DNA of 64,000 nt from Pseudomonadota bacterium (lineage in GTDB: Bacteria; Desulfobacterota; Desulfovibrionia; Desulfovibrionales; Desulfovibrionaceae), in the NCBI GenBank assembly GCA_018816865.1, contig JAHIUW010000023.1, forward strand, positions 1-64,000, given 5' to 3'. Below the pieces are notes generated by a model. That model ran no database searches and was not told the DNA's origin. It saw nothing but the letters and a program-made list of their open reading frames with translations. How positions within the stretch are numbered: position 1 is the stretch's first letter; each line of letters opens with the position of its first letter. Position numbers and translations under genes: made by a program. This document shows, in pieces, positions 14,787-64,000 of the stretch.

Positions 14787-14790
14787 TCTG

Positions 14791-39409: not shown

Positions 39410-39510
39410 GGACTCCCGCCCCGGCGCGCGGAACGACCGGCATATTCACGGCAATCAGGCCTCAATCCGTGCCCCTTCGGCGCGGCGGGCCACAGACTGG
39501 GAGATGACAG

Positions 39511-40593
39511 GTGGGGCTGAGACTCACGGATATCAGTAGAACCGTCGGCCAGGAGATGCATCTTGCGGATGTGAATCTTGAGCTCAAGACGGGCTCGCGG
39601 TATATCATTCTGGGGCGGACCCTGGCCGGCAAGACCTCGCTGTTGCGGATCATGGCCGGGTTGGATCGCCCGGGCACGGGGAAGGTGCTGGCGGACGACA
39701 AGGACGTGACCGGGGTCTCCGTGCGCAAGCGCGATGTGGCCATGGTCTACCAGCAGTTCATCAACTATCCCTCGCTGACCATCTATAAAAACATCGCCTC
39801 TCCCCTGAAGATCGCCGGAGTGTCCAGGGCCGAGGTCGACCGCCGTGTGCGCGAGGTCGCCAGGACCCTGCAGCTTGATCCCTTGCTGGATCGGCTGCCG
39901 GCCGAGCTGTCGGGCGGGCAGCAGCAGCGCACGGCCATTGCCCGGGCGCTGGTCAAGGAATCGCATCTGCTGCTCCTGGACGAACCCCTGGTCAACCTGG
40001 ACTACAAGCTGCGCGAGGAACTGCGCGAGGAATTGCAGCACATCTTCATGGAGCGCGAATCCATCGTGGTCTACACCACCACCGAGCCCACCGAAGCCCT
40101 GATGATGGGCGGCAACGTCGTGGTCATGGACCAGGGGCGCATCCTGCAGATCGGCAAGACCACCGAGGTCTTCAACCACCCGCGGAACATGAAGGTGGCC
40201 GAGGTCTTCAGCGATCCGCCCATGAATTTCATCCCGGCTCGGATCGTGGACGGCCAGGCCCGCCTGAGCGCCTGCATGCAGGCACCTCTGGTGGGCGGTT
40301 TGCAGGGGCTGACCCCCGGTGAATACACCTTTGGCGTACGAGCCAGCCGGGTGTTCCTGAACCAGCGGCACGAGTCGGACATCAGCCTGTGCGGAGAGGT
40401 TGCGCTGAGCGAGATCAACGGCTCGGAGACCTTCATCCACGTGGGCTGCGGCAGGATCAAGCTGGTGGCTCAGGAGGACGGAATCCACGGGATCAAGGGC
40501 GGCAGCAACCTGCCCCTGTTCATCAACCCTGAGGACTTTTACGTCTTTGACGCGAACGGCGATCTGCTGATTGCCCCGACCGCGATGGACTAA
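39511..40593 (+). CDS. ABC ATPase paralogue with a degenerate Walker A (GlpS-like); first of two ATPases in a glycerol-type ABC importer.
   Basis: GRTLAGKTS in place of GxxGxGKST. LSGGQQQR and LLLDEP retained. MalK-like C-terminal domain. Confidence 0.8.
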   Translation: MGLRLTDISRTVGQEMHLADVNLELKTGSRYIILGRTLAGKTSLLRIMAGLDRPGTGKVLADDKDVTGVSVRKRDVAMVYQQFINYPSLTIYKNIASPLKIAGVSRAEVDRRVREVARTLQLDPLLDRLPAELSGGQQQRTAIARALVKESHLLLLDEPLVNLDYKLREELREELQHIFMERESIVVYTTTEPTEALMMGGNVVVMDQGRILQIGKTTEVFNHPRNMKVAEVFSDPPMNFIPARIVDGQARLSACMQAPLVGGLQGLTPGEYTFGVRASRVFLNQRHESDISLCGEVALSEINGSETFIHVGCGRIKLVAQEDGIHGIKGGSNLPLFINPEDFYVFDANGDLLIAPTAMD

Positions 40594-40606
40594 GCGGAGG
40601 CCGACA

Positions 40607-41692
40607 GTGGCGCGAATCGACCTGGTAGAGGTGGCGCACAGCTACCACCCCCGGCCCAAGGGCCCTGAAGATTTCGTCTTCAAGCGCATCCACACCACCT
40701 GGGAGGACGGCGGGGCCTATGCCCTGCTCGGCCCTTCCGGATGCGGCAAGACCACCATGCTCAACCTGATCTCGGGCCTGCTGGCCCCGTCGCACGGCAA
40801 GATCCTCTACGACGAGCGCGATGTGACCCGCCTGCCGCCCGAGCAGCGCAACATCGCCCAGGTCTTCCAGTTCCCGGTGCTCTACGACACGATGAGCGTC
40901 TACAACAATCTGGCCTTCCCCCTGCGCAACCGCGGAATGAGCGAGACCGAGGTCAGGGAGCGCGTGGGCATCGTGGCCGAGATCCTGGGCCTGTCCGCCG
41001 ACCTGGACAAGCGTGCGGCCGGGCTGGCCGCCGATGCCAAGCAGAAGATATCGCTCGGTCGGGGGTTGGTGCGCAGCGACGTGGCGGCCATTCTGTTCGA
41101 CGAGCCCTTGACCGTCATCGATCCGCACCTGAAGTGGCAACTTCGCAGGAGTCTGAAGGAGATCCACAAGGAATTCGGGCTGACCATGATCTATGTGACC
41201 CACGACCAGGTGGAGGCCATGACCTTCGCCGACAAGGTCGTGATCATGTACGACGGTGAACTGGTCCAGACCGGGGCCCCCGACGAGCTGTTCGAGACAC
41301 CGGAACACACCTTTGTGGGCTATTTCATCGGCAGTCCGGGCATGAATTTCATGGACTGCACCCTGGAGGGTGGCGTGGCCCACGCCAATGGTTCAGCGAT
41401 CCCCGTGGACGCCGAGTACGCGGCCCGGGCACAGGCCACGGGCAGTTCCCTGAAGATGGGCATCCGCCCCATGTACCTGGAGGTGCGCGAGTCCGAGGTC
41501 ACGGGCAGCGTCCCGGGCCGGGTGACCCATGTCGAGGATCAGGGGCACTGCAAGATCGTCACGATCAAGCTGGGCGAATTGACCCTCAAGGCGCGCATCA
41601 TGGACGGCCGGGCCATTCCCGCCGGGAGCTGCCACCTGGTGTTTCCGCCTGAAAAGATCAAATTCTTCGCTGATGACCGGCTGGTGAAATAA
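40607..41692 (+). CDS. Canonical ABC ATPase (GlpT/UgpC/MalK-like). GTG start with GGAGG RBS; the track ORF starts at 40571.
   Basis: GPSGCGKTT, LGRGLV, FDEPL; C-terminal TOBE/MalK regulatory domain. Confidence 0.85.
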   Translation: MARIDLVEVAHSYHPRPKGPEDFVFKRIHTTWEDGGAYALLGPSGCGKTTMLNLISGLLAPSHGKILYDERDVTRLPPEQRNIAQVFQFPVLYDTMSVYNNLAFPLRNRGMSETEVRERVGIVAEILGLSADLDKRAAGLAADAKQKISLGRGLVRSDVAAILFDEPLTVIDPHLKWQLRRSLKEIHKEFGLTMIYVTHDQVEAMTFADKVVIMYDGELVQTGAPDELFETPEHTFVGYFIGSPGMNFMDCTLEGGVAHANGSAIPVDAEYAARAQATGSSLKMGIRPMYLEVRESEVTGSVPGRVTHVEDQGHCKIVTIKLGELTLKARIMDGRAIPAGSCHLVFPPEKIKFFADDRLVK

Positions 41693-41703
41693 CGGAGACC
41701 GAT

Positions 41704-42573
41704 ATGGAAAAATGGGAAAGCAACAAGGCCTGGTTCCTGATCCTGCCCGTCATCGTCATCGTGGCCTTTTCAGCCATCATCCCCCTGATGACGGTGGTCA
41801 ACTACTCGGTCCAGGACATCTTCGGACCCGGGCAGCGGATGTTCATCGGCACCGAATGGTTCAAGGATGTCCTCTCGGACACGCGCCTGCACGACGCCTT
41901 GGGGCGTCAGCTGATGTTCTCGGGTCTGGTGCTGCTGATCGAGATGCCGCTGGGGGTGCTCATCGCCCTGGGCATGCCCAAGAAGGGCTGGGGCTCGTCC
42001 CTGTGTCTGGTGCTGCTGGCCCTGCCGCTGCTCATCCCCTGGAACGTCATTGGCACCATCTGGATCATCTTCACCCGGCCCGACATCGGGCTGTTCGGCG
42101 CGACCATCAATTACCTGGGACTGAGTTTCGACCATACGGCCCATGCCCTGGATGCCTGGGTCACGGTGATGCTGATGGAGGTCTGGCACTGGACGCCGCT
42201 GGTGGCTTTGTTGGCCTACGCGGGCCTGCGGGCCATCCCCGACGCCTTCTATCAGGCCGCCAAGATCGACGGTGCGTCCCGCCTGGCCGTGTTTTGCTAC
42301 ATCGAACTGCCCAAGATGCGCGGGGTGCTGACCATCGCGCTGCTCTTGCGGTTCATGGACAGTTTCCTGATCTATGCCGAGCCCTTTGTGCTCACTGGCG
42401 GCGGCCCCGGCAACGCCACCACCTTCTTGTCCATCTATCTGGTCAAGGTCGCGGTGGGGCAGTTCGACCTGGGCCCGGCGGCGGCCTTCTCGCTGATCTA
42501 CTTCCTGATCGTGCTGCTGTTCTGTTTCCTGTTCTATCAAGCCCTGCAGTCCGTCGGGAAGGGGGAGCGCTGA
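41704..42573 (+). CDS. ABC importer permease (GlpP/UgpA-like).
   Basis: Six-TM MetI family permease. Confidence 0.85.
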   Translation: MEKWESNKAWFLILPVIVIVAFSAIIPLMTVVNYSVQDIFGPGQRMFIGTEWFKDVLSDTRLHDALGRQLMFSGLVLLIEMPLGVLIALGMPKKGWGSSLCLVLLALPLLIPWNVIGTIWIIFTRPDIGLFGATINYLGLSFDHTAHALDAWVTVMLMEVWHWTPLVALLAYAGLRAIPDAFYQAAKIDGASRLAVFCYIELPKMRGVLTIALLLRFMDSFLIYAEPFVLTGGGPGNATTFLSIYLVKVAVGQFDLGPAAAFSLIYFLIVLLFCFLFYQALQSVGKGER

Positions 42574-42574
42574 G

Positions 42575-43378
42575 ATGAAAATCAAGAAGAAATACTTCGT
42601 CCTGGGCTTCTATCTGCTGTTGTTGATGCTGCCCATCTACTGGATGCTGAACATGAGTCTGCGGACCAATGCGGATATCCTGGGCCATTTCGCCCTGTAC
42701 CCCAGCGAGCCCACCCTGGCCAACTATATGAAGATCTTCGGGGACCCGTCGTGGTATTCGGGCTATATCAATTCCATCATCTACGTCAGCATCAACACCG
42801 CGATCTCGTTGTTCACGGCGCTGCCCGCGGCCTACGCCTTTTCGCGCTACCGTTTCATCGGCGACAAGCACGTCTTCTTCTGGCTGTTGACCAACCGCAT
42901 GGCCCCGCCGGCGGTCTTTCTGCTGCCGTTCTTCCAGCTCTATTCCACCTTCGGGCTCATCGACACCCACATCGCCGTGGCCCTGGCCCACTGTCTGTTC
43001 AACGTGCCCCTGGCGGTCTGGATCCTGGAAGGCTTCATGTCCGGGGTGCCCAAGGAGATCGACGAGACCGCCTTCATCGACGGTTACAGCTTCCCGCGCT
43101 TCTTCCTGACGGTTTTCATCCCGCTGATCCGGGCCGGCATCGGCGTGACCGCATTCTTCTGCTTCATGTTCAGCTGGGTGGAGCTGCTCCTGGCGCGGAC
43201 CCTGACCACCACCAACGCCAAGCCCATCGCCGCCATCATGACCCGCACCGTGAGCGCCTCGGGTTTGGACTGGGGCCTGTTGGCCGCGGCGGGGATCCTG
43301 ACAATCGTGCCCGGGGCATTGGTGATCTGGTTCGTGCGCAATCATCTGGCCAAGGGCTTTGCCCTGGGCCGGGTCTAA
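42575..43378 (+). CDS. ABC importer permease (GlpQ/UgpE-like).
   Basis: Six-TM MetI family permease; translationally coupled. Confidence 0.85.
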   Translation: MKIKKKYFVLGFYLLLLMLPIYWMLNMSLRTNADILGHFALYPSEPTLANYMKIFGDPSWYSGYINSIIYVSINTAISLFTALPAAYAFSRYRFIGDKHVFFWLLTNRMAPPAVFLLPFFQLYSTFGLIDTHIAVALAHCLFNVPLAVWILEGFMSGVPKEIDETAFIDGYSFPRFFLTVFIPLIRAGIGVTAFFCFMFSWVELLLARTLTTTNAKPIAAIMTRTVSASGLDWGLLAAAGILTIVPGALVIWFVRNHLAKGFALGRV

Positions 43379-43396
43379 CCCCCAAGGAGCACCATC

Positions 43397-43675
43397 ATGC
43401 AACTCGAATGGATGGCCTGGACTCCGGTGACCGCGGGGTTCTTCATCGTGATCGTGGTCATGCTCATCGGCATGACAACCTGGGAGGTCGTTTCCCCCAA
43501 TATCGAACGCAAGGGCTTCTTGCCCATCGCCACCACCCGTGGGGATCGCCTGTTCATCGGGCTGCTTGGCAGCGCCTATATCCATCTGGCCTGGATCGGC
43601 CTGACGGATCTGAGTCTTTGGATCGCCACTGTCATCTCGGTTGGGTTCATGGTCGGTCTGATGCGTTGGGGCTAG
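43397..43675 (+). CDS. DUF2160-family small membrane protein (GlpU-like).
   Basis: 92 aa, two TM helices; WEVVSPNIERKGFLPIATTRGDRLFIGLL is typical of DUF2160 proteins found in glycerol ABC loci. Confidence 0.65.
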   Translation: MQLEWMAWTPVTAGFFIVIVVMLIGMTTWEVVSPNIERKGFLPIATTRGDRLFIGLLGSAYIHLAWIGLTDLSLWIATVISVGFMVGLMRWG

Positions 43676-43766
43676 GCCCCGACGCCATGCAGAGCCGACG
43701 AAGAGGGACAGGGGGTCCTGTTGTTAACGGGAGTCTGTACGAAACGTGCAAACGAGGAGGATGATC

Positions 43767-45506
<1,740 letters not shown>

Positions 45507-52015: not shown

Positions 52016-52969
52016 TCAGTCTGCCGTCTCCTTGGCCGGTTCCTCGCTGGTCACGGCCCCGGACTGGTCGTAGAACATGCCGCAACGCAGGTCGAAGTGG
52101 CGGTTGATGCTCATGGTGGGGCAGCTGGCGTTGAGGGCCACTTGGGCCACGGTGGAGCCGAGATAGGCCTCCTCGGGATCCTTTACCTTGCTGTGGTGGG
52201 CCATCAGGATCAGGTCGGCCTTCTTCATCCGGGCGTACTTCAGGATCTCCATGCTGGGCACTCCTTCCCAACATTCGTAGCTGACCTCGTGGATGCCTTC
52301 CAGGCGCGGGCCGAACTCCTGCTCCATGCGGGCCTTGGCCGTGGCGATGCCTTCCTCGATCTCCTCCTGCGAGGGCGTGTCGTGCCCCTGCGGGATATCC
52401 AGGACCGAGAAGACATGCAGGGCCGCCTTGTACTGGCGGGCCAGTTGCCCGCCGTAGCCCACAGCGCATTCGGCCTGGAACGAGAAGTCCGTGGCCACCA
52501 CGATGTTGCTGAACTGCATCCGTTCCTCGGGCACTTCGCGGGCCACGATCATCACCGGGCAGCGGGCCTTCTGGCTGACGCGCTCGATGTTCGAACCGGC
52601 CACGCCCCACATCTTGGCGCGGCGGTGCAGGTCGTCCTTGGTGCAGCAGCCCATGACGATGAGATCCGCATTTCTCTTGCGCGCCAGGCGTAGGACTTCG
52701 GCATGCGGGATGCCCGGAACGACAGTCACCTTGCAGTCCTCGCAATCGGCGAGGTGCTTGGCGTAGTGCTTTTCGATGGCCCCCTTGATCTGGTCCACCT
52801 CACCGGAGGGCATCATGTGTTCGATGGCGCCCCAGCCGTGGGACGGCAGGCCGCAGACATGGATCATTGCCAGGTTGGATTCGTGCTTCTTGGCGAACGC
52901 GAAGGCCGCGTCGGCCGCGCACTGACACACATCGGACGGGGTTACTGCCAAAATGATGTCCTTAAACAT
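52016..52969 (-). CDS. Tandem universal stress protein (two UspA domains).
   Basis: Two Usp folds, each with an ATP-binding G-x2-G-x9-G(S/T)-like motif (VMGCCTKDD..., LMAHHSKVKD...GSTV). Confidence 0.8.
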   Translation of the reverse strand: MFKDIILAVTPSDVCQCAADAAFAFAKKHESNLAMIHVCGLPSHGWGAIEHMMPSGEVDQIKGAIEKHYAKHLADCEDCKVTVVPGIPHAEVLRLARKRNADLIVMGCCTKDDLHRRAKMWGVAGSNIERVSQKARCPVMIVAREVPEERMQFSNIVVATDFSFQAECAVGYGGQLARQYKAALHVFSVLDIPQGHDTPSQEEIEEGIATAKARMEQEFGPRLEGIHEVSYECWEGVPSMEILKYARMKKADLILMAHHSKVKDPEEAYLGSTVAQVALNASCPTMSINRHFDLRCGMFYDQSGAVTSEEPAKETAD

Positions 52970-53091: not shown

Positions 53092-54063
53092 TCAGTCGGC
53101 CTCGCCGATCGCGACTCCTTCCTCTTCGGGCACGGGCGGCGGTGGCGGCCCGGCCGTGAACTTGTCCATGAACCCGCGGGTCAGCGCCAGGTTCTTGTCG
53201 AGCATCAATTCATGTCGCGACAGGCCCATGGCCAGCCCCAGCAACTGGGGCAGATAGAGGATGGTCATGGGCTCGCGGATCCCGGCCTGCTTCTGGAAGC
53301 TCTCCAGGTTCATCTGGCACATGGGGCAGACCGTAACGATGGCATCGGCCCCTGTGGCCGCGTCCAGAACCTCTTGGATGCGCGGCAGGGCGGCGGCGCG
53401 GTGCGTGGTGGCCAAGGAGGCCCCGCAGCAGCGTGCCCCCTTGTCCCAGGTGTGGATGTGTGCGCCCGTGGCCGTGAGGATGGCCTCCATGCTCACGGGA
53501 CGTTCCGGATCGTCGAACTGGGCGTAGGGCCGCAGCGTCTGGCAGCCGTAATAGGGCGCGAGGGAAAAGCCCTCCAGGGAGTGGCTGATCTGCCCGGCGA
53601 TGGCGTCTGGCCCCACGTCGAAGGCCAGCACGTCCAGCAGGTGGCGGACCTCGGTGAAGTTCTCCCAGGTCAGACCCTCGGCCAGGAGGACCTCCTCCAC
53701 CCGGGCGGAGAGTGCGCGGTCGGCGCGGGCCTCCTCGCGGGCGGCCAACAGGTTCAGATAGCAGGCGCTGCACGGGGCCAGGACGTCGCGTCCGGCCAGA
53801 TCGCGCTCGGCCAGGGCCAGGTTGCGGGCGGGCAGGGCAAAGGCCAACAACTCGCTCACGGCCTGACCGGCGCTGGCTCCGCAGCAGGTCCAGTCCGGGA
53901 TATCGACCAAGTCCGCACCCAGGCGCGCAAGCAGCGCGCGGGTGCTGGCGTCGAATTCCACGGCCGTGCCGGTCAAGGAACAGCCGGGGTAATAGGCGTA
54001 CTTGATCTGCTTCTTCATGCCCCTGCTCGTTTCGCTCTGATCGTGCTTTTGCTTTGTCATCAT
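53092..54063 (-). CDS. hdrB: Heterodisulfide reductase subunit B (two CCG domains).
   Basis: YYPGCSL...WTCCGAS and YYGCQTL...CCGASL; ATGATGA overlap with hdrC. Confidence 0.85.
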   Translation of the reverse strand: MMTKQKHDQSETSRGMKKQIKYAYYPGCSLTGTAVEFDASTRALLARLGADLVDIPDWTCCGASAGQAVSELLAFALPARNLALAERDLAGRDVLAPCSACYLNLLAAREEARADRALSARVEEVLLAEGLTWENFTEVRHLLDVLAFDVGPDAIAGQISHSLEGFSLAPYYGCQTLRPYAQFDDPERPVSMEAILTATGAHIHTWDKGARCCGASLATTHRAAALPRIQEVLDAATGADAIVTVCPMCQMNLESFQKQAGIREPMTILYLPQLLGLAMGLSRHELMLDKNLALTRGFMDKFTAGPPPPPVPEEEGVAIGEAD

Positions 54064-54623
54064 GGTTGGCCCTCCATCTCGGCGGCCTTGTGGAACAACG
54101 GCTCCAGGCTGGTCACCTCGGGTGCGTGCGGGGCGGTCAGGTGCACCTTGCCCTTGGCCATCAGCTTCAGGCCCAGGGGTGCGAATTGCATGGCCAGGGC
54201 GGGGCTCTTCATGGCCAGGAACCAGCGCTGCATCAGTTCGGTCTCCTGCACGCGGCCGTGGCGGCGTACGTTGTCCATGAAGGTCCGGTAGAAGGCCCCC
54301 TTGCGGGCCAGGGCCTTGTCGCCGCCCTGGGCCGCGATGCGTTTTAAGGCATTCATGGCCCGGGTCAGAGGCAGGCCGCGCGGGCAGCGCAGGCTGCAAG
54401 AATAGCAGTTGGAGCACAGCCAGAAGGCCGTACTGGCGAAGACCTGCTCCTGTTGGCCCAACAGGGTCAGGCGCCACATGCGCCGGGGGCTCATGTCCAT
54501 GGCCTCGGCATTGGGGCACGAGGCGCTGCACGTCCCGCATTGCATGCAGGCCGAGATCATCTCGCGCACCGGTTCCAGCGCGCTGTGGGGTTCTTGGGTG
54601 ACGAGGATCGCTGTCCTGGTCAT
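54060..54623 (-). CDS. hdrC: Heterodisulfide reductase subunit C (2x[4Fe-4S]).
   Basis: CMQCGTCSASCP and CSNCYSCSLRCP. Confidence 0.85.
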   Translation of the reverse strand: MTRTAILVTQEPHSALEPVREMISACMQCGTCSASCPNAEAMDMSPRRMWRLTLLGQQEQVFASTAFWLCSNCYSCSLRCPRGLPLTRAMNALKRIAAQGGDKALARKGAFYRTFMDNVRRHGRVQETELMQRWFLAMKSPALAMQFAPLGLKLMAKGKVHLTAPHAPEVTSLEPLFHKAAEMEGQP

Positions 54624-54640
54624 GGTTCGCCTCCTGGGTC

Positions 54641-57600
54641 TCAGTTCAGGTCGGACAGGGCCGCGTCGATCTCGCGCATGACCTGGCCGTCCTTGAATCC
54701 GGTGAGCACGCTGGCGCTGTTGGGGCAGACCGCCGCGCATGAGCCGCAGCCCTGGCAGAGTAGTTCGTCCACCACGGCCACCCCCGCCTCCAGGTCCAGG
54801 GACCTCGCCCCGTATGGGCAGGCGGGCACGCAGCGCCCGCAGGTGGAGCACAGGCTGGCGCGGACCTCGGCCTTGATGCGCCCGCCGATGACGGTCTCCT
54901 GGGAGAGGATGCGCATGGACCGCGAGGCCGCGGCCTTGGCCGAGGCGATGGTCTCGGACATGTTGCGCGGGCTGGAACAGACCCCGCACAGGAACACGCC
55001 CTGGCGCAGGAAATCCACGGGCCGCCACTTGGACTCGGCCTCCTGGAAGAATCCGTCGCCATTGAGCGGCACCTGGAAGACCTCGGCCATTTCGTCTGCG
55101 CCTGCGGGCTCCATGCCCACGGACAGCACCAACAGGTCCGTGCTCACGGCGATCTCGCGGCCCAGGATGGGGTCCGTGGCCGTGACCGTGGGCCGATGCT
55201 CGGTATCGAAGGTCACCCGCGGCTTGTCCGTGGGCTCGTAGCGGATGAAGATCACCCCCTTCTTGCGGGCCTGGGTGAAGAAGCGCTCGGCAAAGCCGTA
55301 GCTCATGATGTCGCGGTAGAAGACGTACACGGGCAGGTCCGGGTTGCGTTCCTTCAGGGTCAGGGCGTTCTTCAGGGCCGAGGCGCAGCAGACCCGCGAG
55401 CAGTAGTTGCGGGGTTCCTCGCGGGATTCCACGCACTGGATCATGGACACGCCCGAAAGCGCGCCCGTGTCCAGGGAGCCGTCGTTCAATCCGGCCTCCA
55501 GCTCGCTCTGGCGCAGCACGCTCTTATGCACCCGGTAGCCGTAGGAATCGGGCACGACTTCGCTGGCGCCCGTGGCCAGGATGGTCACCCCGTGTTCCAG
55601 GGTCATGGCTGTGCCCTCGTCCATGGCCACGGCGCTCATGAAGCGTCCGGCCCGACCCAGGGAGAGCATGATCCGCGAGTTGAGGAAGGTCTTGATGTTC
55701 GGGTGGCGCTGGACCTGGTCCACCAGGTCCTCCAGGAAGCCGCGTGCGTCGCCTCCGCCCAGGGTGGTTTGTACGTTCAGGGCCAGCCCGCCCAGTTGGT
55801 CGGACTGTTCCACCAGACAGACCTCGTAGTCCTGGTCGGCCAGGGCCATGGAGGCGGTCATGCCCGCTAGGCCACCGCCCACCACCAGGGCGCGCGGGGT
55901 CACGGGGGACTTGCCCAACAGCGGCGAGGGGTCGGCGTCGGCCAGGCGCACGGCGGCCATGGTCAGGGAAATGTAGACCTCCCGCGCCAGGGCGTCGTCG
56001 GAGCTCATGGCCCCCGGGAAGGTCGGGGTGTAGACGTCCACCACGTCCATGAAGGCTGGGTCCAGGGCGATGCGGGCGCCCAGTTCCCGCAGCCTGGGTA
56101 CGTAAGCGTAGGGCATGCAGGCCCCGATCAGGATGCGGTTGGGCAGATGCTTCTCGGCCAGGGCTTGGATCTCGCCCCAGCCGCCACCGCCGCAGGCATT
56201 GCTGATGGAGGCCACGTGGATCACTGTGGACAGGTCCGCCAGTTGGGTAGCCAGGGCGTCCATATCCACGCGGGCCGTCAGGGTCGGGCAGTCCGTGCAT
56301 AGAGCCACCAGCATTCGGGGCTCCTCGCGGGTCACGTCGCGGTATTCGGGCGCAGGCTCGGGTTCGGCCTCGCGCGGCGGCGAATAGATCTTGTAGGTCC
56401 TGGCCGCGCCTAAGGCTGCGGCCCCGGACTGGATAACCGAGTCGGCGATGTCCCGGGGCTGGCCCATGGCCCCTGCGGCGAACACGCCCAGGCGCGAGGT
56501 GCGTGCAGGCTGGAATTCGCCGGTCAGGGCGAAGCCCGTGTCCAGGGTCTCGATGCCAGCGGCCTCGGCCAGTTCGGCCATCTTTGCCGGGGGCCTGACC
56601 CCGGTGGAGAGCACGAACAGGTCGAAGACCTCGGTCTCGAGCTCGCCCTTGTCGTTCACGTAGCGTACGGGCACGCCCTGGGCGTCTGGGCCAGCCTCGA
56701 TGGAGTGCAGGCGGGTGCGCACGAAGCGCACGCCCTGTTCATGCTCGGCGCGGTCGCGGTAACGCTGGAAGTCCTTACCAAAGGTGCGCATGTCCATGTA
56801 AAAGATGGTGGTTTCGGCCTGGCCAGCGGTGAGACGCTTGGCCAAGAGGGCCTCCTTGATGGCGAACATGCAGCAGATGGACGAGCAGAAATCGGCGTTG
56901 CGGTTCACATCGCGGCTGCCCACGCATTGCAGCCAGCCGATCTTGCGGGCGGGTTGGCCGTCCGGGCGCAGCAGCTGGCCGCCCGAGGGGCCGGTGCCCG
57001 AGCACATGCGCTCGAATTCCACGGCGGTCATCACGCCGGGGATGGTCCCGTAGCCCCAGAGCTGGCCGCCTTTGGCGGGGTTGAAGCATTCGAACCCCGC
57101 GGCCAGGACAACGGCCCCGACTTCCAGTTCGTGGCGGATGTCGGACATCATGCGGATGTAGGTCTTGTCCAGCCAGCGCCCCACCTGCTTGCTCAACGGC
57201 GTGACCAGATAGTCCCTGGCTCCTTCCTCGATCAGGCGTTCGGCCAGGTCCTGCTGCTCCGGGTCGATGATCAGCACGACTCGCAGGTCGGGGTATAGCT
57301 CCAGGCCGCGGCGCATGACCTTCTCGAAATCGATGTCCTGTGCAGTCAGATCCAGGAACAGCAGTTGCGTGGGCGTTGCCTCCAGCAGATCGCGGGCCTG
57401 GTCCGTGGTCAGGGCCGCGTGCGCGGGCAGTTTGATCTTGCCGCACCAGCCGGTCAGTTGTTCCCCTAGCTCCTGGCCCGCTGCGATCAGGATGTGGAAG
57501 TCCGGCCGGGCCTCGTCCTTGAAGTCCACGGCTCCGGTGGGGCAGGCCTCGAAGCAGGCCCGGCAGCGGGTGCAGCGTTCCAGGTCCACTACGTAGCGAT

Positions 57601-58066
57601 TGGGGATGGCGTGGGGCACGGGCAGATGAATGGCCGTGCGCGTAGAGAGTCCCGCATTGAATTCGCTGGGCACGCTCACCGGGCAGACCTTGGCGCATTC
57701 CCCGCAGCTGATGCAGCGCTCGGGGTTGACGAAGCTGGACCGCTGCCGCAGCGTCGCCCGGAACTTGCCCGGGTCGCCGGTCAGCGTTGCCAGTTCAGTG
57801 CCGGTCAGGATGTCGATGTTCTTGTGGAACAGACCTTTGCGCATGCAGAACTGGCTGGAGGCGTCCCGGCTGGTCAGCGGCAGCATCTTGCACATGCCGC
57901 AATGGTCGCTGGGGAATTGGTGGTCGAGTTGGGTCAGGATGCCGCCGATGCCGGGGCGCTTGTCGATCAGCGCCACCTTGTGTCCGGACTCGGCCAGGTC
58001 CAGGGCGGAGCGGATGCCCGCGATGCCGGCTCCGACCACCAATGCTGCATAGTGCTTCCTGTTCAT
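54641..58066 (-). CDS. Giant HdrA-like flavoprotein (HdrL-type): two tandem HdrA FAD/Fe-S modules, an internal MvhD-like domain and a receiver-like insert.
   Basis: Two dinucleotide motifs (VVGAGIAGIRSA, LVVGGGLAGMTAS). Two HdrA Cys clusters (LQCVGSRD...CSSICC, IQCVESRE...CSRVCC). Four ferredoxin CxxCxxCxxxCP motifs. MvhD-like CTDC...ACGGGGW...ACMPYAY. Confidence 0.8.
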   Translation of the reverse strand: MNRKHYAALVVGAGIAGIRSALDLAESGHKVALIDKRPGIGGILTQLDHQFPSDHCGMCKMLPLTSRDASSQFCMRKGLFHKNIDILTGTELATLTGDPGKFRATLRQRSSFVNPERCISCGECAKVCPVSVPSEFNAGLSTRTAIHLPVPHAIPNRYVVDLERCTRCRACFEACPTGAVDFKDEARPDFHILIAAGQELGEQLTGWCGKIKLPAHAALTTDQARDLLEATPTQLLFLDLTAQDIDFEKVMRRGLELYPDLRVVLIIDPEQQDLAERLIEEGARDYLVTPLSKQVGRWLDKTYIRMMSDIRHELEVGAVVLAAGFECFNPAKGGQLWGYGTIPGVMTAVEFERMCSGTGPSGGQLLRPDGQPARKIGWLQCVGSRDVNRNADFCSSICCMFAIKEALLAKRLTAGQAETTIFYMDMRTFGKDFQRYRDRAEHEQGVRFVRTRLHSIEAGPDAQGVPVRYVNDKGELETEVFDLFVLSTGVRPPAKMAELAEAAGIETLDTGFALTGEFQPARTSRLGVFAAGAMGQPRDIADSVIQSGAAALGAARTYKIYSPPREAEPEPAPEYRDVTREEPRMLVALCTDCPTLTARVDMDALATQLADLSTVIHVASISNACGGGGWGEIQALAEKHLPNRILIGACMPYAYVPRLRELGARIALDPAFMDVVDVYTPTFPGAMSSDDALAREVYISLTMAAVRLADADPSPLLGKSPVTPRALVVGGGLAGMTASMALADQDYEVCLVEQSDQLGGLALNVQTTLGGGDARGFLEDLVDQVQRHPNIKTFLNSRIMLSLGRAGRFMSAVAMDEGTAMTLEHGVTILATGASEVVPDSYGYRVHKSVLRQSELEAGLNDGSLDTGALSGVSMIQCVESREEPRNYCSRVCCASALKNALTLKERNPDLPVYVFYRDIMSYGFAERFFTQARKKGVIFIRYEPTDKPRVTFDTEHRPTVTATDPILGREIAVSTDLLVLSVGMEPAGADEMAEVFQVPLNGDGFFQEAESKWRPVDFLRQGVFLCGVCSSPRNMSETIASAKAAASRSMRILSQETVIGGRIKAEVRASLCSTCGRCVPACPYGARSLDLEAGVAVVDELLCQGCGSCAAVCPNSASVLTGFKDGQVMREIDAALSDLN

Positions 58067-58084
58067 GATGCCCCCCGGGGTGCG

Positions 58085-59230
58085 TTAGTGCGAGCCACCT
58101 GTGACCTCCGCGAATTCGTCCTCGCGGAAGATGGTCATGGGCGGCGCTTCGTCAGGGTTCATGCCCGGCGTGTAGCCGAAGGCTGCCTGCGTCTTGTGGG
58201 ATACGGTACGGAACAGCTCCATCACGGGCACGTTGTTGGGGCAGGCGTTGGAGCACTGGCCGCAGCCCACGCAGGAGGTGCTCATGTGCGCCAGCCGAGT
58301 CAGGTGGAAGAACACCGTGTCCGTGGGCATCTTCAGGGATCCGTGCTTCTTGGCCCAGCCCAGGTACTGATCGGGCTTGTAGTCGAAGACGTCGGTCAGA
58401 AAGACGCATTCCTTGCAGTAACAGACCGGGCAGGCCGCGCGGCAGTTGTAGCAGTTGATGCAGCTTGAGAGGTGCTCGGCCAGTCCGGCCAAGGTGCTCG
58501 TGGCTGCGTGGGTTGTCTCGAACATGGCGTCGCGGAAGTTTTCGCGCTTGGCCACCACCTCGGCCACGACCGCCTCGCGCGCTCCATTGGCAGGGGCATC
58601 GGAATAGCCCAGCCGGGTCAGCACGCCTTCGCCGCGGGCGGTGTTGGCGATGAGCTGGATCTCCTTGGTCGGGTCGCTGCCGAACAACCCCAGGATCAGG
58701 TCCGCGCCTTCGGGCACGGGATGTTCGCAGGCCTGGCAGGCCTTGGCGATGGGCAGCCCGTCTATCTCGGTCTGGCCTCCCAGGGCCTGGAGCATGAACT
58801 TTTCACTCAGGGCCATGGGCTCGCCCTGGGCCGCGTAGTGCTGGTTGTCCGCGTTGGTCAGTGCGCCCAGGCAATCGCTGCCGATGAGCAGCACATGGTC
58901 CATGCTGCCCTGGTTGAGCTTGACCAGTTCGATGAAGGCCCGGATCTCGCAGGGCCGGAGCACCGCCGCCACGGGCCTGCCCCCTGCGCCCTTGGTCAGG
59001 CGCGAGATCATCTTGGCCGCGTTGAGGGGAAAGGCCGGAGACAGGGGATCGGCCTGCGCCATGTCTGCGGGGTCACTGACCAGGGTGGGCATCACCGCGC
59101 CCTTGATGGGCATGTGGCGGGGCGTGAGAATCGCCGTCGCCTCGCCCCGTTCCAGAAGCTGGACGAGCAGGCCCTGGATTGCGCGCACAGGCCCCTCGGG
59201 TCCGACTTCGATACGTGCTGTGGTCGCCAT
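58085..59230 (-). CDS. FrhB/FdhB-like FAD and Fe-S subunit (coenzyme F420 hydrogenase beta-subunit family-like).
   Basis: C-terminal CINCYNCRAACP and CVGCGQCSNACP. Start MATTARIE with a GGAGGGAGAA RBS. Family call is tentative. Confidence 0.6.
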   Translation of the reverse strand: MATTARIEVGPEGPVRAIQGLLVQLLERGEATAILTPRHMPIKGAVMPTLVSDPADMAQADPLSPAFPLNAAKMISRLTKGAGGRPVAAVLRPCEIRAFIELVKLNQGSMDHVLLIGSDCLGALTNADNQHYAAQGEPMALSEKFMLQALGGQTEIDGLPIAKACQACEHPVPEGADLILGLFGSDPTKEIQLIANTARGEGVLTRLGYSDAPANGAREAVVAEVVAKRENFRDAMFETTHAATSTLAGLAEHLSSCINCYNCRAACPVCYCKECVFLTDVFDYKPDQYLGWAKKHGSLKMPTDTVFFHLTRLAHMSTSCVGCGQCSNACPNNVPVMELFRTVSHKTQAAFGYTPGMNPDEAPPMTIFREDEFAEVTGGSH

Positions 59231-59247
59231 GATTTTCTCCCTCCAGG

Positions 59248-59670
59248 TCAGAGAATGGCCGCTTGTCTGGCTTCGCCGGGACCCATCTCCCGGATCTCGG
59301 CCACCAGATCGTTGACGGTTGCGGCGAATTCGTTGCCCTCGCTGGCCCCGATCCAGGTCAGCTTGACCCGGCGTTCGTCGATGCCGAACTGGGTCAGCAA
59401 CTCTTTGAGAAGCTTCACCCGCCGCCGGGCCTTGTAGTTGCCGTTGATGTAGTGGCAGTCGCCCGGGTGGCAGCCGCTGATGAGCACGGCGTCTGCCCCG
59501 GCGAGCAGTGCCTTGATCACGTACTTGGGGTCCACCATGCCGGTGCACATCATGCGGATCAGTTTCAGGTTGGGCGGCTGGACCATTCGCGAGGTGCCCG
59601 CCAGATCCGCCGCAGTGTAGGTGCACCAGTTGCAGACAAAGGCCACGATGGTCGGTTCAAAATGTCCCAT
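59248..59670 (-). CDS. mvhD: MvhD/FlxD-like [2Fe-2S] electron-transfer protein.
   Basis: FVCNWCTY...MCTGMVDP...GADAVLISGCHPGDCHY matches the MvhD family. Confidence 0.85.
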   Translation of the reverse strand: MGHFEPTIVAFVCNWCTYTAADLAGTSRMVQPPNLKLIRMMCTGMVDPKYVIKALLAGADAVLISGCHPGDCHYINGNYKARRRVKLLKELLTQFGIDERRVKLTWIGASEGNEFAATVNDLVAEIREMGPGEARQAAIL

Positions 59671-59694
59671 GGGTCTCTCCTTGGTCGTCTCCGG

Positions 59695-61698
59695 TTAGGC
59701 CTGCGACTGTGCGCTGGGCACGGTGGTCGGTTCCGGCATGGTGGGGACCTCGTCCAGCAGGCCCTCCAGTTCCGAGAAGACCTGACGCTCGGTGAAGTGC
59801 TTGATCTGGGCCGCTCCGCTGGGGCAGTGCCCGGCGCAGCTGCCGCAGCCCTTGCACATGGCCTCGTTGACCACGGAGACCCCGCGGCGGCTGTCGAACT
59901 CGATGGCCGAGTAAGCGCACAGCCCGATGCAGGCCTTGCAGCCGATGCAGATGTCCGGGTCGATGTAGGACGTGGTGGGCGAGACCTCCACGGTGCCGCG
60001 GGCGGCCATGGCCAGGGATTGGGCCGCCGCGCCCGAGGCATGGGCCACGGCATCGGGGATGTCCTTGGGGCCCTGGCAGCTGCCGCCCAGGAAAATACCG
60101 TCCGTGGCCGTGGACACCGGCCCGAGCTTGGGGTGCTCTTCCAGGAAGAAGCCGTCCCGGCCCTGGGCCACGCCGAAGATGCGGGCCACCTCGGAAGTGT
60201 CGTGGCGACATTCCATGGCTGTGCAGAGGATGGCCATGTCCACGGGCACCTCCAGCAGCTGGGCGGAGAGGGTGTCCTCGGCGATGATCAGCAGCTTGCC
60301 GTCCTGGCGCTGACGGATTTCGGAGGGCCGGCCGCGGACGAAGGTCACGCCTTCCTTCTGCACGCGGACCAGGAATTCTTCGTAGCCCTTTCCGAAACAT
60401 CTCAGGTCGATGTAGAAATTGTAGATGGGCGTGTTGTGTCCTACCTTGTCCTTGATCAGGTGGTCGTACTTCAGGGCGTACATGCAGCAGACCCTGGAGC
60501 AGTATTCGTGGTGATTCACGTCGCGACTGCCCACGCAGTGCAGCACGGCCACGCTGCCCGGAGGCTGACCGTTCTTCATCAGGATTTTGCCGCCCGTGGG
60601 GCCCACGGCGTTGTTCAGGCGCTCGAACTGCAGGGCGGTGTAGACCTCTGGAAAGCGCCCGAAGCCGTATTGGGTGATGGGGGTGGGGTCCATGGCGTCG
60701 TAGCCCGTGGCCAGGATGATGCTGCCCACCTCCAGCTCGATGAGCTGCTCGGTCTGTTGGAAATCAATGGCCCCGGACGGGCAGAACTTCTCGCAGGCGC
60801 CGCACTTCTTGCCGTTCAGGACGCGGCAGTGCTCGGCGTCGATGACCGGGGTCGCGGGCACGCTCTGGGGCGAGTTGCGGTAGATGGCACGGCGCTGGGC
60901 CATGCCCTCCTCAAAGATCGAGTCCACGCGTGTGGGGCATTTTTCCAAGCACAGGCCACAGCCGGTGCACTTGGTGGCGTCCACATAGCGGGGCTTCATC
61001 TTGACCGTGGCCTTGTAGTTGCCCACAAAGCCCTCGACGTGGGTCACCTCGGACCAGGTCAAAAGATGGATGTTGGGGTCCTGGGCCACGGCCACCATCT
61101 TCGGTGTCGAGATGCAGGCCGCGCAGTCCAGGGTGGGGAAGGTCTTGTCGAATTGGGCCATGTGTCCGCCGATGGACGGGGCACGCTCGACGAGATGCAC
61201 CCGGTGGCCCGAACGGGCCACATCCAGGGCCGCCTGGATGCCCGCGATGCCGCCGCCCACGACCATCACGTCGGGGCTGACGGGTACCTCGCGTGAATGC
61301 AGCTCCTGATGCCAGCCCACGCGGGCCACGGCTGCCGCTACCAGGTGCTTGGCCTTGAGGGTGGCCTCGGCGGGGTCTGCGGTGACCCACGAACAGTGCT
61401 CGCGAATGCAGGTCATCTGGAAGAAATAGGGGTTCAGCCCGGCGCGGGCGCAGGCCTTCTGGAAGGTCTTTTCGTGCAGCCGGGGCGAGCATGAGGCCAC
61501 CACCACCCGGTTCACCCCGAGGTGCCGGATGTCGTCAATGATCATGTCCTGACCCGGGTCCGAGCACATGAATTTGTAGTCGCGGCTGACCACGACCCCG
61601 GGCAGGCTTTTGGCAAAATAGGCCACGCCTTCGCTGTCCACCTTGCCCGCGATGTTGGTTCCGCAGTGACAGACATAGACGCCGATTCGCTTGGCCAT
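59695..61698 (-). CDS. hdrA: Heterodisulfide reductase subunit A (canonical, about 660 aa).
   Basis: N-terminal VYVCHCGTNI; FAD motif MVVGGGIAGIQAALD; LHCVGSRD...CSRVCC; four [4Fe-4S] motifs. Confidence 0.9.
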   Translation of the reverse strand: MAKRIGVYVCHCGTNIAGKVDSEGVAYFAKSLPGVVVSRDYKFMCSDPGQDMIIDDIRHLGVNRVVVASCSPRLHEKTFQKACARAGLNPYFFQMTCIREHCSWVTADPAEATLKAKHLVAAAVARVGWHQELHSREVPVSPDVMVVGGGIAGIQAALDVARSGHRVHLVERAPSIGGHMAQFDKTFPTLDCAACISTPKMVAVAQDPNIHLLTWSEVTHVEGFVGNYKATVKMKPRYVDATKCTGCGLCLEKCPTRVDSIFEEGMAQRRAIYRNSPQSVPATPVIDAEHCRVLNGKKCGACEKFCPSGAIDFQQTEQLIELEVGSIILATGYDAMDPTPITQYGFGRFPEVYTALQFERLNNAVGPTGGKILMKNGQPPGSVAVLHCVGSRDVNHHEYCSRVCCMYALKYDHLIKDKVGHNTPIYNFYIDLRCFGKGYEEFLVRVQKEGVTFVRGRPSEIRQRQDGKLLIIAEDTLSAQLLEVPVDMAILCTAMECRHDTSEVARIFGVAQGRDGFFLEEHPKLGPVSTATDGIFLGGSCQGPKDIPDAVAHASGAAAQSLAMAARGTVEVSPTTSYIDPDICIGCKACIGLCAYSAIEFDSRRGVSVVNEAMCKGCGSCAGHCPSGAAQIKHFTERQVFSELEGLLDEVPTMPEPTTVPSAQSQA

Positions 61699-61710: not shown

Positions 61711-62157
61711 TTACCTCTGTGGCTCCCGGTCCGGATAATCTTTCAGGGCCAGGGTCAGCTCTGCGACGAGTTGCTTGAGTCTTGCGTTCTCGCTCCGGAG
61801 TTCGGCTTCGGCGCGGGTCTTGCGGCCATCCTCGAACAGTCGGGGCAGATTGCTCGTCAGTCTCTCCTGCCACTTGTAGTATTGGCTGGGGCAGATGCCG
61901 TAGTGCTCACACAGTAGGGAGACCGGGGTGCCCTTGATCCCCTGAAGCACGATTTCGGCCTTGGTGTTGGGGTCCCAGCGCCTGCGTCTCACCTTCGCCT
62001 CCGCATCCGCCTGCGCCCCGCCCGTTACGGGCGTGACAACCTCCCAAGAACAAGAAGCGTACCCGTACCGGAATTTGTTTGCCTTTTCAGGGGTTTTTCG
62101 CTGTGGGGTTCCTTGATTGCAGCGGGGACACAAGGGAAAAACTGTCTTGCTGTGCAA
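61711..62157 (-). mobile_element. IS3-family transposase OrfA remnant (no OrfB), abutting the hdrA start.
   Basis: RRRWDPNTKAEIVLQGIKGTPVSLLCEHYGICPSQYYKWQERL HTH and a leucine-zipper tail (LRSENARLKQLVAELTLALK); no transposase catalytic ORF follows. Confidence 0.65.
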
Positions 62158-62419
62158 GATTTATCTTGTCTGGCAAGACTCGAAGCCTTGGGCTGAGGCA
62201 CCGGAAACGCTGAGGATTATCCGAGGGCTGGATATCTTCAGTGCCGGGGGCAGCGGGGTTTGCGCTGGCAGGGTGCAGGTCCTGGCTCCAACTGTCTTGC
62301 CCGACAAGATCATCCCAGTGTTTTCCTGGGAATTCGAGGAAGTTGACATCATGCGCTTTTTCTTCCCATAGTGGACACTCAAAGGACCCCTGGCGCAGCG
62401 GGGAGCGGAGGGAAAGGCC

Positions 62420-64000
62420 ATGGCGAGCTCCAAGCCATCGGGATTAAAGACAGCAGAGACTGTCCGCAGCGAGGACTGGGCCGATCTGACAACCGGCACC
62501 AGTTTCGCACTGCTCATCGCCCCTGACGGGACCATCCTGGCGGCCAATGAGGCCGTGGCTCAGAGGCTGGAGATCCCCCTGTCCAGATTCGTGGGCAGTT
62601 GCATCTACGATCATTTCCCTGTGGAAACCGCCGCGCGCAGGCGGGCCATGGCGGCCATGGCCCTGGAGACGGGTGTCGCCCAGTCCTATGAGGATGTCTC
62701 CAGTTCCGGCAATGTGCTGGACACGGTGATCCATCCCGTGCTGGGGGCGGATGGCAAGGCGGTGACCCTGGCGGTGTTCGCCACCGATGTCACCGGGCAG
62801 CGGCGGATCATGCATGAACGCCTGCGCATGGCCACGGCCATTGAACAGGCCGTGGAGGCCGTGGTCATCTACGACACGGATTTCAGTATCCGCTACGTGA
62901 ATCAGGCCTTTGAGGAGATGACCGGCTATTCCCAGAGCGAGGTCCGGGGCCGGTCCGGAGAGTTGCTCTATCAGGGCCGTCATCAGCAGAAGTCCCTGGG
63001 GCTCATCAGGACAGCCATGGCCGAGGGCGAGGCCTGGACCGGGCGGACCTTCAACACCCGCAAGGACGGGCGGGTGATCCAGGTGGAGAAGACTGTCTCG
63101 CCCATCCGGGGGCGGTTCGGGGTGCCCTTGGGTTGGGTCAGCGTCTGGCGCGACGTGACGCACGTGGCCGTCTTGGAAAAGCAGCTCAGGCAGGCCCAGA
63201 GCATGGAGGCCATCGGCACTCTGGCTGGGGGCATTGCCCACGATTTCAACAATATCCTGGGACCCATTATTCTGCACTCGGAATTGGGTCAGACAATGGT
63301 CCCCGAGGGGAGCCCGGCACACCTGAGCTTTTCAGAGATCCTGGAGGCCGCCAACCGGGCCCGGGCCCTGGTGGACCAGATCCTGTCCCTGTCGCGCAAG
63401 CATGAGGCCGACGAGCCAGTACTCTTCCGTTTGTCCAGTATCTGCAAGGAATGCATCAAGTTCCTGCGGCCTTCTCTGCCCGCCACCATCGCCATCGTCG
63501 AGGACCAGCGCGCCGAGGATGATACGATTCTGGCCGACCCCACGCAGATTCATCAGGTGGTCATGAACCTGGCCACCAACGCGGCCTACGCCATGCGCGA
63601 GCAGGGCGGCACACTGACCCTGGCGGTCCAGGCCGTGGATCTGGACCTGTCCATGCGTTCGCTGTTCCCGGATGCGGGGGTCGGGAGCTATGTGATGCTG
63701 ACCGTCAAGGACACGGGCCAGGGCATGCCCAAAGAGCATCTGGAACGGGTCTTCGACCCCTTCTTCACCACCAAGAAGAGCCTGGGCACGGGCCTGGGCC
63801 TGACCGTGGTCCACAACATCGTGACCCGCCATGGCGGGGCCGTGCGTCTGGAGAGCTCGCCAGGCGTCGGCACGGCCTTTCACGTGCTCCTGCCGCGCAG
63901 CGAATCGCCCGGACTGGTCCCGGCCGAGACCCTGATCGCCAGTCCGATCCTGGGCAGCGGTCAGGTACTGTTTGTGGACGACGAGGCCGCGCTGCGCACG
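62420..64000 (+). CDS. PAS/PAC hybrid sensor histidine kinase, 3'-partial (the receiver domain begins at the window end). Not in the ORF track because there is no stop codon in the window.
   Basis: Own translation from atggcgagctcc. Two PAS domains. H-box GIAHDFNNIL. HATPase G-boxes (DTGQGM, GTGLGLTVV). VLFVDDEAAL is a receiver start. Confidence 0.75.
   Translation, partial: MASSKPSGLKTAETVRSEDWADLTTGTSFALLIAPDGTILAANEAVAQRLEIPLSRFVGSCIYDHFPVETAARRRAMAAMALETGVAQSYEDVSSSGNVLDTVIHPVLGADGKAVTLAVFATDVTGQRRIMHERLRMATAIEQAVEAVVIYDTDFSIRYVNQAFEEMTGYSQSEVRGRSGELLYQGRHQQKSLGLIRTAMAEGEAWTGRTFNTRKDGRVIQVEKTVSPIRGRFGVPLGWVSVWRDVTHVAVLEKQLRQAQSMEAIGTLAGGIAHDFNNILGPIILHSELGQTMVPEGSPAHLSFSEILEAANRARALVDQILSLSRKHEADEPVLFRLSSICKECIKFLRPSLPATIAIVEDQRAEDDTILADPTQIHQVVMNLATNAAYAMREQGGTLTLAVQAVDLDLSMRSLFPDAGVGSYVMLTVKDTGQGMPKEHLERVFDPFFTTKKSLGTGLGLTVVHNIVTRHGGAVRLESSPGVGTAFHVLLPRSESPGLVPAETLIASPILGSGQVLFVDDEAALRT

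Follow-up and report, generated by a model that had tools for sequence, protein, structure and literature searches.

The window analysed here, a 64,000-nucleotide (nt) stretch of contig JAHIUW010000023.1 (GCA_018816865.1, positions 1–64,000), carries an operon of six genes of the heterodisulfide reductase (Hdr) type at 53092–61698 on the minus strand. Its product is probably (at roughly 60%) a multi-flavin complex of the Hdr type, soluble and cytoplasmic, through which sulfate reducers couple three redox partners by flavin-based electron bifurcation or the reverse process, confurcation. Support for this reading comes from full-length matches of the subunits, complementary domain loss within a 1141-residue tandem HdrA (hereafter “the giant”), retained Glu/Lys pairs, conservation of the six-gene order in 53 of 80 loci, and the proteins of a cluster with matching composition and order in Syntrophobacter fumaroxidans, which are abundant only with sulfate.

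The six genes are arranged head to tail in the order hdrA, mvhD, an FdhB/ElpB-like gene, the giant, hdrC, and hdrB. With gene starts set from the source-contig gene calls and ribosome-binding sites, which are good throughout, adjacent genes are separated by 12–25 nt or overlap, and the ATG of hdrB overlaps the hdrC stop codon (ATGA). The G+C content around the operon is 63–68%, and G+C at third codon positions (GC3) of 0.76–0.91 marks the true genes. A first-pass annotation, made from the sequence alone, had listed the same six genes, order, and coordinates, including the 1141-residue open reading frame (ORF) at 54641–58066, all of which are borne out by the gene calls and subunit matches.

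The FdhB/ElpB-like gene (58085–59230) encodes a flavo-Fe-S subunit of 381 residues with an FrhB-fold domain and a C-terminal multi-cluster domain. The protein barely clears PF04432 (26.9 bits). A profile of 30 homologues matched, at near full length, 9T1S_M (2.6e-46), 7BKB_E (6e-41), and 8RVU_E (7e-40), which are FdhB/ElpB chains from three solved structures in which they are bound to Hdr. The AlphaFold2 (AF2) model has a predicted local distance difference test score (pLDDT) above 80 for residues 1–240, and its first Foldseek matches were 8rvu_E and 7bkb_E. The motifs CxxCxxCxxxCPxCxCxxC and CxxCxxCxxxCP are common to this protein and the FdhB/ElpB chains, and 15 Cys residues are invariant among the 30 homologues. 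A role as the input module, already suggested for this subunit in the first-pass annotation, is the best-supported one. No gene for an FdhA/ElpA partner was found in the operon.

The remaining single-core subunits are also recognizable. The gene mvhD (59248–59670, 140 residues; PF02662, 4e-53) encodes a [2Fe-2S] connector subunit that matched the solved-complex chains 7BKB_F (9e-46), 5ODC_D (4e-45), and ElpC 8RVU_F (5e-45). The gene hdrA (59695–61698, 667 residues) encodes a canonical single-core HdrA without a GltD insert, which aligns end to end with 5ODC_A of the Mvh-Hdr crystal structure (residues 3–649 against 4–651, E = 1e-213). It comprises an N-terminal Fe-S domain, a flavin adenine dinucleotide (FAD) core with the DCxxC motif, and inserted and C-terminal ferredoxin domains, and the cysteine map contains every canonical HdrA cysteine group; the score against the NCBIfam HdrA2 model is below the cut-off (790 vs 1100 bits). 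The product of hdrC (54060–54623, 187 residues) has two [4Fe-4S] cluster sites with the Pfam domains Fer4_8/Fer4_17 and a sub-cut-off TIGR03290 score of 79.8 bits. The product of hdrB (53092–54063, 323 residues) has two CCG domains (PF02754, two stretches) and matched the methanogen HdrB chain 8RVU_b over its full length (7e-38), with both CCG/CxxC motifs aligned.

The giant (54641–58066) is a tandem, “type II”-like HdrA with two HdrA-type FAD/[4Fe-4S] cores, both of which retain the FAD motif and the CxGxRD...CSxxCC cluster. Its AlphaFold model (pLDDT 75.7, predicted template modelling score 0.77) found the HdrA chains of 8RVY, 5ODC, and 7BKB as first Foldseek matches. Module 1 (residues 1–580; 56327–58066) aligns with residues 145–313 and 318–471 of 5ODC HdrA. 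The first of these blocks (residues 7–185 of the giant) contains the FAD-binding part, the sequence D-H-C56-G-M-C59, in which C56 and C59 correspond to Cys194 and Cys197 of 5ODC, and an inserted 2×[4Fe-4S] ferredoxin domain, and the second (residues 313–467) is the remainder of the first core. Module 1 also holds the C381/394/398/399 cluster and the pair E352/K404 but has neither an N-domain nor a C-terminal ferredoxin domain. It is followed by an N-terminal Fe-S domain of the HdrA type (residues 581–720; 55907–56326), which aligns with 5ODC residues 2–156 (residues 581–736 of the giant, E = 3.6e-6). The 5ODC alignment and cysteine map assign the rest (residues 721–1141; 54644–55906) to the core of module 2 and a C-terminal ferredoxin domain. 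This part holds the FAD motif, the C878/889/893/894 cluster, the pair E857/K899, and eight Cys in the C-terminal 2×[4Fe-4S] domain, with residues 961–1138 matching 5ODC 471–651 (end of the second core and C-terminal ferredoxin domain). Neither an inserted ferredoxin domain nor the DCxxC motif with Cys197 is present in module 2.

The first-pass annotation had described two complete HdrA modules with an MvhD-like domain between them. The two FAD/[4Fe-4S] cores are indeed present, but neither module is complete, and each has the domains that the other has lost. What lies between them is the HdrA N-domain (E = 3e-5 against the HdrA of the operon), as MvhD gave E = 0.75 and PF02662 did not match; a receiver-fold domain at residues ~186–312, discussed below, had also been missed. 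The two halves of the giant are 28% identical to each other and 24–37% identical to the 667-residue HdrA. Directly after Cys59, residues 60–80 (~57827–57889) form a family-specific, invariant segment, RDxSSQFC(74)xRKG, with one further invariant Cys that canonical HdrA does not have; the segment has the lowest confidence in the model (pLDDT 37–40).

Synteny and residue conservation were counted in 80 fetched loci. The cluster cysteines of the giant are invariant in all 80, and within its N-domain only C590, C625, and C650 are invariant (C593 is present in 46/80). In HdrA dimers, Cys197 of the partner protomer completes the N-domain cluster (PMC9012536), and for this reason three N-domain cysteines together with Cys59 of module 1 are what an intramolecular pseudo-dimer needs; fused HdrA proteins have been explained along these lines before (PMC9012536). 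The Glu/Lys pair, a proposed marker of bifurcating HdrA (PMC12054007), is kept in both modules (78–80 of 80 loci; 80/80 for module 1). As judged from its domain composition, the giant is a single chain that mimics an HdrA dimer of unequal halves and offers a single entry, a single exit to ferredoxin, and a single exit to HdrBC. Module 1 supplies Cys59 and the single inserted ferredoxin domain, and module 2 the single N-domain cluster and the single C-terminal ferredoxin domain.

In the proposed mechanism, a two-electron donor would be oxidized at the flavin of the FdhB-like subunit. The flavin domain and cluster chain of this subunit, together with the [2Fe-2S] connector MvhD, form an input arm of the same construction as the ElpB/FdhB-MvhD arm of the methanogen Elp-Hdr and Fdh-Hdr complexes. 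MvhD and then the N-domain cluster would carry the electrons on to a bifurcating FAD. One branch would then lead through the C-terminal ferredoxin domain to HdrC and HdrB, which would reduce a disulfide or trisulfide of a protein or of low molecular weight, with DsrC as the likeliest candidate. In the other, ferredoxin would receive electrons via the only inserted ferredoxin domain. The whole scheme could equally run in reverse (confurcation), and the receiver at the ferredoxin-exit domain may plausibly serve as a phospho-switch in those homologues where it is canonical. If Desulfovibrionales lack F420, as is assumed here, the donor is less likely to be F420 than NAD(P)H or another partner. 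A sister variant of the operon carries a GltD NAD(P)H-type domain in its first HdrA, and a donor at the level of pyridine nucleotides is therefore indicated for the family; the donor is least certain for the window variant because this domain is absent from it.

The closest characterized machine to the operon is the Elp-Hdr complex. In Methanothermobacter marburgensis, F420H2 is oxidized by ElpB, which is homologous to FdhB and binds FAD and four [4Fe-4S] clusters, and electrons pass from the ElpB FAD through its clusters and the HdrA N-domain clusters to ElpC/MvhD and the bifurcating FAD (PMC12350162). Both Elp-Hdr (ElpABC-HdrABC, 8RVU/8RVY) and Fdh-Hdr-Fmd (7BKB) share with the operon the FdhB/ElpB-like, MvhD/ElpC, HdrA, HdrC, and HdrB subunits as full-length matches. 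Unlike these complexes, the window operon has no ElpA/FdhA and contains an additional tandem HdrA with a receiver domain, F420 is not expected in bacteria of this kind, and the substrate of its HdrB cannot be CoM-S-S-CoB.

Tandem HdrA proteins have been described in anaerobic methanotrophic archaea and methanogens (HdrA3/4) and in the Moorella MetFV-HdrABC-MvhD system (PMC9012536) and are classed as “type II” (PMC12054007). Archaeal type II clusters include FdhB and MvhD, in some cases together with a separate type I HdrA, and the FdhB flavin has been proposed as the entry point (PMC12054007). The giant resembles these proteins in its two thioredoxin-reductase-fold cores per chain, complementary loss of N-domain and Cys197, Glu/Lys pairs in both cores, and clustering with FdhB and MvhD. 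However, the core with Cys197 comes first and the core with the N-domain second in the giant, whereas the archaeal and Moorella proteins are described in the reverse order (PMC9012536), and the giant alone of these has the receiver insert. Type II clusters also have an inactive molybdopterin (FdhA-like) subunit, whereas the operon has MvhD and the FdhB-like subunit but no molybdopterin gene.

Among sulfate reducers, the same gene set and order occur in the “HdrABC/HdrL” cluster of S. fumaroxidans (Sfum_0819–0824), as matched by its description and by the synteny of a Syntrophobacter metagenome-assembled genome (MAG) locus, L076. The S. fumaroxidans proteins were abundant only with sulfate present, and DsrC was proposed as the acceptor, with no donor assigned (PMC5947623). 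Locus VIII of Desulfobacterium autotrophicum HRM2, whose legend lists hdrL/hdrA, fdhB, and hdrA4-hdrCB (PMC2702500), is a possible counterpart by the published gene list alone. Neither account (PMC5947623, PMC2702500) mentions the tandem nature of the large HdrA or a receiver domain within it. The operon thus matches a published, biochemically uncharacterized system and is not a discovery in itself, and its architecture differs from that of every characterized Hdr complex. FlxABCD-HdrABC of Desulfovibrio vulgaris, another soluble Hdr-like complex from a sulfate reducer for which DsrC has been proposed as the acceptor, differs in its input module and HdrA architecture. The first-pass annotation had set the operon apart from this set, in agreement with the absence of flx genes in or adjoining it, where the neighbors are the helix-turn-helix (HTH) protein, kinase, universal stress protein (Usp), EamA, and AraC genes and the minus-strand ORFs examined leave no space for extra genes.

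The same annotation had placed the operon close to HdrL/HdrA2-type complexes. This holds insofar as methanogen Hdr with an FdhB/ElpB-MvhD arm is the nearest characterized relative, but the name HdrL does not fit the giant. HdrL is defined as a fusion of heterodisulfide reductase and NADH-binding glutamate synthase (PMC2702500), and the Pfam and NCBIfam searches found no GltD-like domain (Fer4_20 + Pyr_redox_2) in the giant or the 667-residue HdrA, by which HdrL is ruled out for the giant. In S. fumaroxidans, too, the name was given to the first hdrA gene and not to the giant (PMC5947623). The giant does share with HdrL/type III HdrA a foreign domain at the inserted ferredoxin domain, and some GltD-carrying relatives of ~1500 residues share its whole tandem backbone. 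Its insert differs in being a receiver without an NAD(P)H site and in lying after the second cluster motif rather than between both motifs. Because the backbone is shared and the receiver sits near the place that GltD takes in those proteins, the giant is better described as a sibling of the ~1500-residue proteins than as an HdrL.

The 53 loci with all six genes in the same order span Desulfovibrionales, Syntrophobacterales, and Desulfobacterales, and most of the other loci are apparently cut by contig ends. Two variants can be distinguished. The first, found in 24 Syntrophobacterales/Desulfobacterales loci, has a GltD-like insert in the first hdrA and a canonical receiver in the giant, whereas the second, in Desulfovibrionales including the window, has a plain first hdrA (encoding the 667-residue protein in the window), a degenerate receiver, and a tandem Usp gene after hdrB. 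Unlike the 24 GltD-insert loci, the Syntrophobacter MAG locus L076 has a plain first hdrA. In L053 (2364–5834), an HdrL-type first hdrA is broken into three overlapping ORFs, which look like assembly frameshifts rather than gene fission. Four loci (L042, L049, L068, and L075) contain hdrA-mvhD-fdhB-like-giant with no hdrC/hdrB downstream despite several kilobases of available sequence, and in L068 and L075 a HAMP-PAS kinase gene directly follows the giant.

The giant backbone was searched exhaustively against 1.84 billion cluster representatives, and the best 150 were classified. The arrangement of a core with Cys197, an N-domain, and a second core defines a large family: of these best 150, ~90 have 940–1080 residues without an insert, 6–8 have 1134–1176 residues with a receiver, and 17 have 1472–1532 residues. 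In one long relative (P0259), the two cluster motifs of the inserted ferredoxin domain are separated by Fer4_20 + Pyr_redox_2, an NAD(P)H module resembling GltD/NfnB. The nearest named homologue of the giant among the matches listed is from Desulfovibrio ferrophilus (89%); a published proteomics study of that species could not be linked to this cluster in particular. The window locus is an ordinary member of a conserved family.

Several points weigh against a bifurcating three-partner complex. The family is biochemically uncharacterized, and with three HdrA cores for one HdrBC set, the stoichiometry and roles are uncertain. The NCBIfam equivalog models for CoB-CoM heterodisulfide reductase scored below their cut-offs (HdrA 605/1400, HdrB 143/345, HdrC 80/160), and the HdrB substrate is therefore not the methanogen heterodisulfide; the source organism is related to sulfate reducers. 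The flavin/substrate site of the FdhB-like subunit is a putative assignment from overall homology. A donor enzyme was not found adjoining the operon: the ~10 kb on either side encode no hydrogenase, no NADH module, and no catalytic subunit of a formate dehydrogenase, which is consistent with the unknown donor of the first-pass annotation. The window variant lacks GltD and its receiver lacks catalytic residues, so that donor and regulation are least certain here. Finally, hdrCB is absent after the giant in four loci with downstream sequence.

The last point bears on an alternative in which the operon encodes two separate enzymes, a homodimeric HdrA-MvhD-FdhB-like oxidoreductase and a tandem HdrA-HdrC-HdrB ferredoxin:disulfide reductase, linked only via ferredoxin. 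The 667-residue HdrA has all the domains for methanogen-like homodimerization, the giant has the two halves of a dimer within its own chain, and a single HdrBC set is available for the three HdrA cores. However, the genes keep their order and close spacing in three bacterial orders, HdrC normally docks on a canonical HdrA that has a C-terminal ferredoxin domain, and MvhD requires an N-domain partner, which both HdrA proteins offer. Two enzymes appear unlikely, though they are the strongest alternative to the single complex. A non-bifurcating wire, in which electrons for the HdrB substrate come straight from reduced ferredoxin or from the FdhB-like donor, is more doubtful still. Methanosarcina HdrA2B2C2 has ferredoxin:CoMS-SCoB oxidoreductase activity besides bifurcation (PMC5296606), and the hdrA and mvhD products of the window score best against the HdrA2 model. 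Nevertheless, both modules of the giant retain the Glu/Lys pair and the full bifurcation-linked cluster set, and three flavin cores with a ferredoxin-exit domain are hard to explain by a wire.

The feature that sets the giant apart is the receiver domain of CheY fold inserted into module 1 (residues ~186–312; 57131–57511, minus strand) between the equivalents of 5ODC residues 313 and 318. The insert of ~125 residues follows directly after the inserted ferredoxin domain and is modelled by AF2 as a (beta-alpha)5 fold (E191–195/H198–210/E215–218/H221–230/E233–239/H247–257/E262–267/H269–280/E285–288/H294–308) with the highest confidence in the giant model (pLDDT 85–92). The window copy scores below the PF00072 (Response_reg) cut-off (19.8 vs 30.2 bits), and the orthologous inserts score 50–59 bits in other Desulfovibrionales and 113–116 bits in Syntrophobacterales-type loci. 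Its catalytic positions read AAGQ, D239, I267, and T289, leaving Asp239 as the sole catalytic residue kept, and it is the most degenerate of the copies scored; the catalytic residues are variably lost among Desulfovibrionales receivers. The acidic pair, phospho-acceptor Asp, Thr, and Lys are all present in 40/40 Syntrophobacterales/Desulfobacterales-type loci, where the canonical motifs are RILVVDDEL, LMLLDIKMPGMD, VVMMTAY, and YLMKPFD. Some database entries bear names of the type [quoted passage not shown], and our literature search for a receiver domain in HdrA found no publication discussing one.

From these residues, the receiver of Syntrophobacterales/Desulfobacterales is predicted to be a bona fide phospho-acceptor. 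It probably gates the ferredoxin branch under the control of neighboring kinases, and in the window it has decayed to a pseudo-receiver that probably serves as a structural or docking element. Kinase presence was compared with retention of the receiver Asp, and the counts (14/4 against 6/12) are suggestive only, being confounded by phylogeny. We tentatively extend this to a model, for now the less probable outcome, in which the receiver-bearing tandem HdrA is a phospho-switchable bifurcating enzyme: a sensor kinase from a gene adjoining the operon would phosphorylate the receiver beside the ferredoxin-exit domain, opening or closing the low-potential branch or switching the DsrC-reducing Hdr complex between bifurcation and confurcation, and the switch would have decayed in Desulfovibrionales including the window.

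Signalling genes surround the cluster in the window and elsewhere. A PAS/HisKA/HATPase sensor kinase gene (Pfam; 62372–64000, plus strand) is divergent from the operon and runs off the window. In the source contig, it encodes a 635-residue hybrid kinase with a receiver domain and is followed by a gene for an NtrC-type sigma54 activator; this region beyond the window (L081, 2295–5647) is followed by CheX, HDOD, and CheR genes further on. Orthologues of the kinase (42–60% identity, full length) occupy the same position in 19 Desulfovibrionales-type loci. Because of the NtrC-type activator in the neighborhood, a sigma54 promoter was searched upstream of the operon, but no −24/−12 match with up to two mismatches was found in 61993–62371, and the window-wide count was below chance expectation; sigma70 and terminator scans were uninformative. 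In the Syntrophobacter MAG, hdrB is followed by genes for a HAMP-PAS kinase, a REC-HATPase protein, a Usp, and a single receiver, and orthologues of these genes lie near the cluster in ~18 other loci.

Between the kinase gene and hdrA lies a gene for a small HTH protein of the IS3 OrfA/HTH_Tnp_1 type (61711–61992, minus strand; 93 residues, GTG start; PF01527, 38.5 bits), which ends 12 nt upstream of hdrA. This gene is conserved immediately upstream of hdrA, and in the same orientation, in 17 loci from several genera (L002, L006, L013, L014, L016, L017, L021–L028, L030, L032, and L033, at ~3900–4340). A transposase or insertion sequence remnant was considered for the ORF at 61711–62157 and ruled out, as the 93-residue protein is kept there in those 17 loci. 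The protein looks like a domesticated transposase DNA-binding domain and may be a regulator of the operon. On the other side, 74–120 nt downstream of hdrB, a tandem Usp gene (52016–52969, minus strand; PF00582, two stretches) is found in nearly all Desulfovibrionales-type loci that reach far enough, and Syntrophobacterales-type loci have a single-domain Usp near the cluster.

The receiver insert together with the kinases, single-domain receivers, Usp, and HTH protein around the cluster could also be taken to mean that these flavo-Fe-S proteins are a redox sensor, reporting the cytoplasmic redox or thiol state to a two-component system via the embedded receiver. This seems highly improbable, as the S. 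fumaroxidans proteins are highly abundant under sulfate respiration (PMC5947623), the catalytic site of HdrB is complete, and most relatives of the giant have no receiver insert. An assembly or frameshift join of two hdrA genes, which the first-pass annotation had named as what would overturn its reading of the large ORF, is refuted by the identical protein on two independent assemblies, 120 homologues among the matches listed (1132–1203 residues, 54–100% identity, some from complete genomes), relatives in at least 586 species genomes in a genome scan, the 28% identity of the modules, and a GC3 of 0.89 throughout.

Elsewhere in the window, the only FdhA-like candidate is a molybdopterin oxidoreductase gene (24196–26310, minus strand; 704 residues; Fe4S4, Molybdopterin, and Molydop_binding domains), which lies 28 kb from the operon and is adjoined by molybdate-type ATP-binding cassette (ABC)/TOBE genes (18923–23052). 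A further redox locus on the minus strand (30590–38293) encodes glycerol kinase, a CCG-domain protein, a NarI-like membrane and 2×[4Fe-4S] protein, and GlpB- and GlpA-like flavoproteins; this glpAB-hdrF-type arrangement, as described for D. autotrophicum, is adjoined by genes for a DeoR regulator and an ABC transporter (38561–45506). A D5_N/DUF5906 primase-helicase-like gene (1918–4032, minus strand) and a stretch of lower G+C (4000–16000, 56–60%) with a gene for a 698-residue ankyrin-repeat protein (7708–9804) are probably an integrated mobile element.

The operon, conserved across hundreds of Desulfobacterota species, bears on the open question of how electrons reach DsrC in the cytoplasm of sulfate reducers and how these organisms balance their ferredoxin, NAD(P)H, and thiol/disulfide pools. 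With a built-in asymmetric HdrA dimer, an Elp/Fdh-type input, and a receiver at the ferredoxin exit, a testable model can replace the vague designation of an “Hdr-like cluster”. The receiver insert, with its conserved kinases, is a new and testable angle on this system, and if the proposed phospho-switch is true, it would constitute direct two-component control over an energy-coupling redox enzyme.

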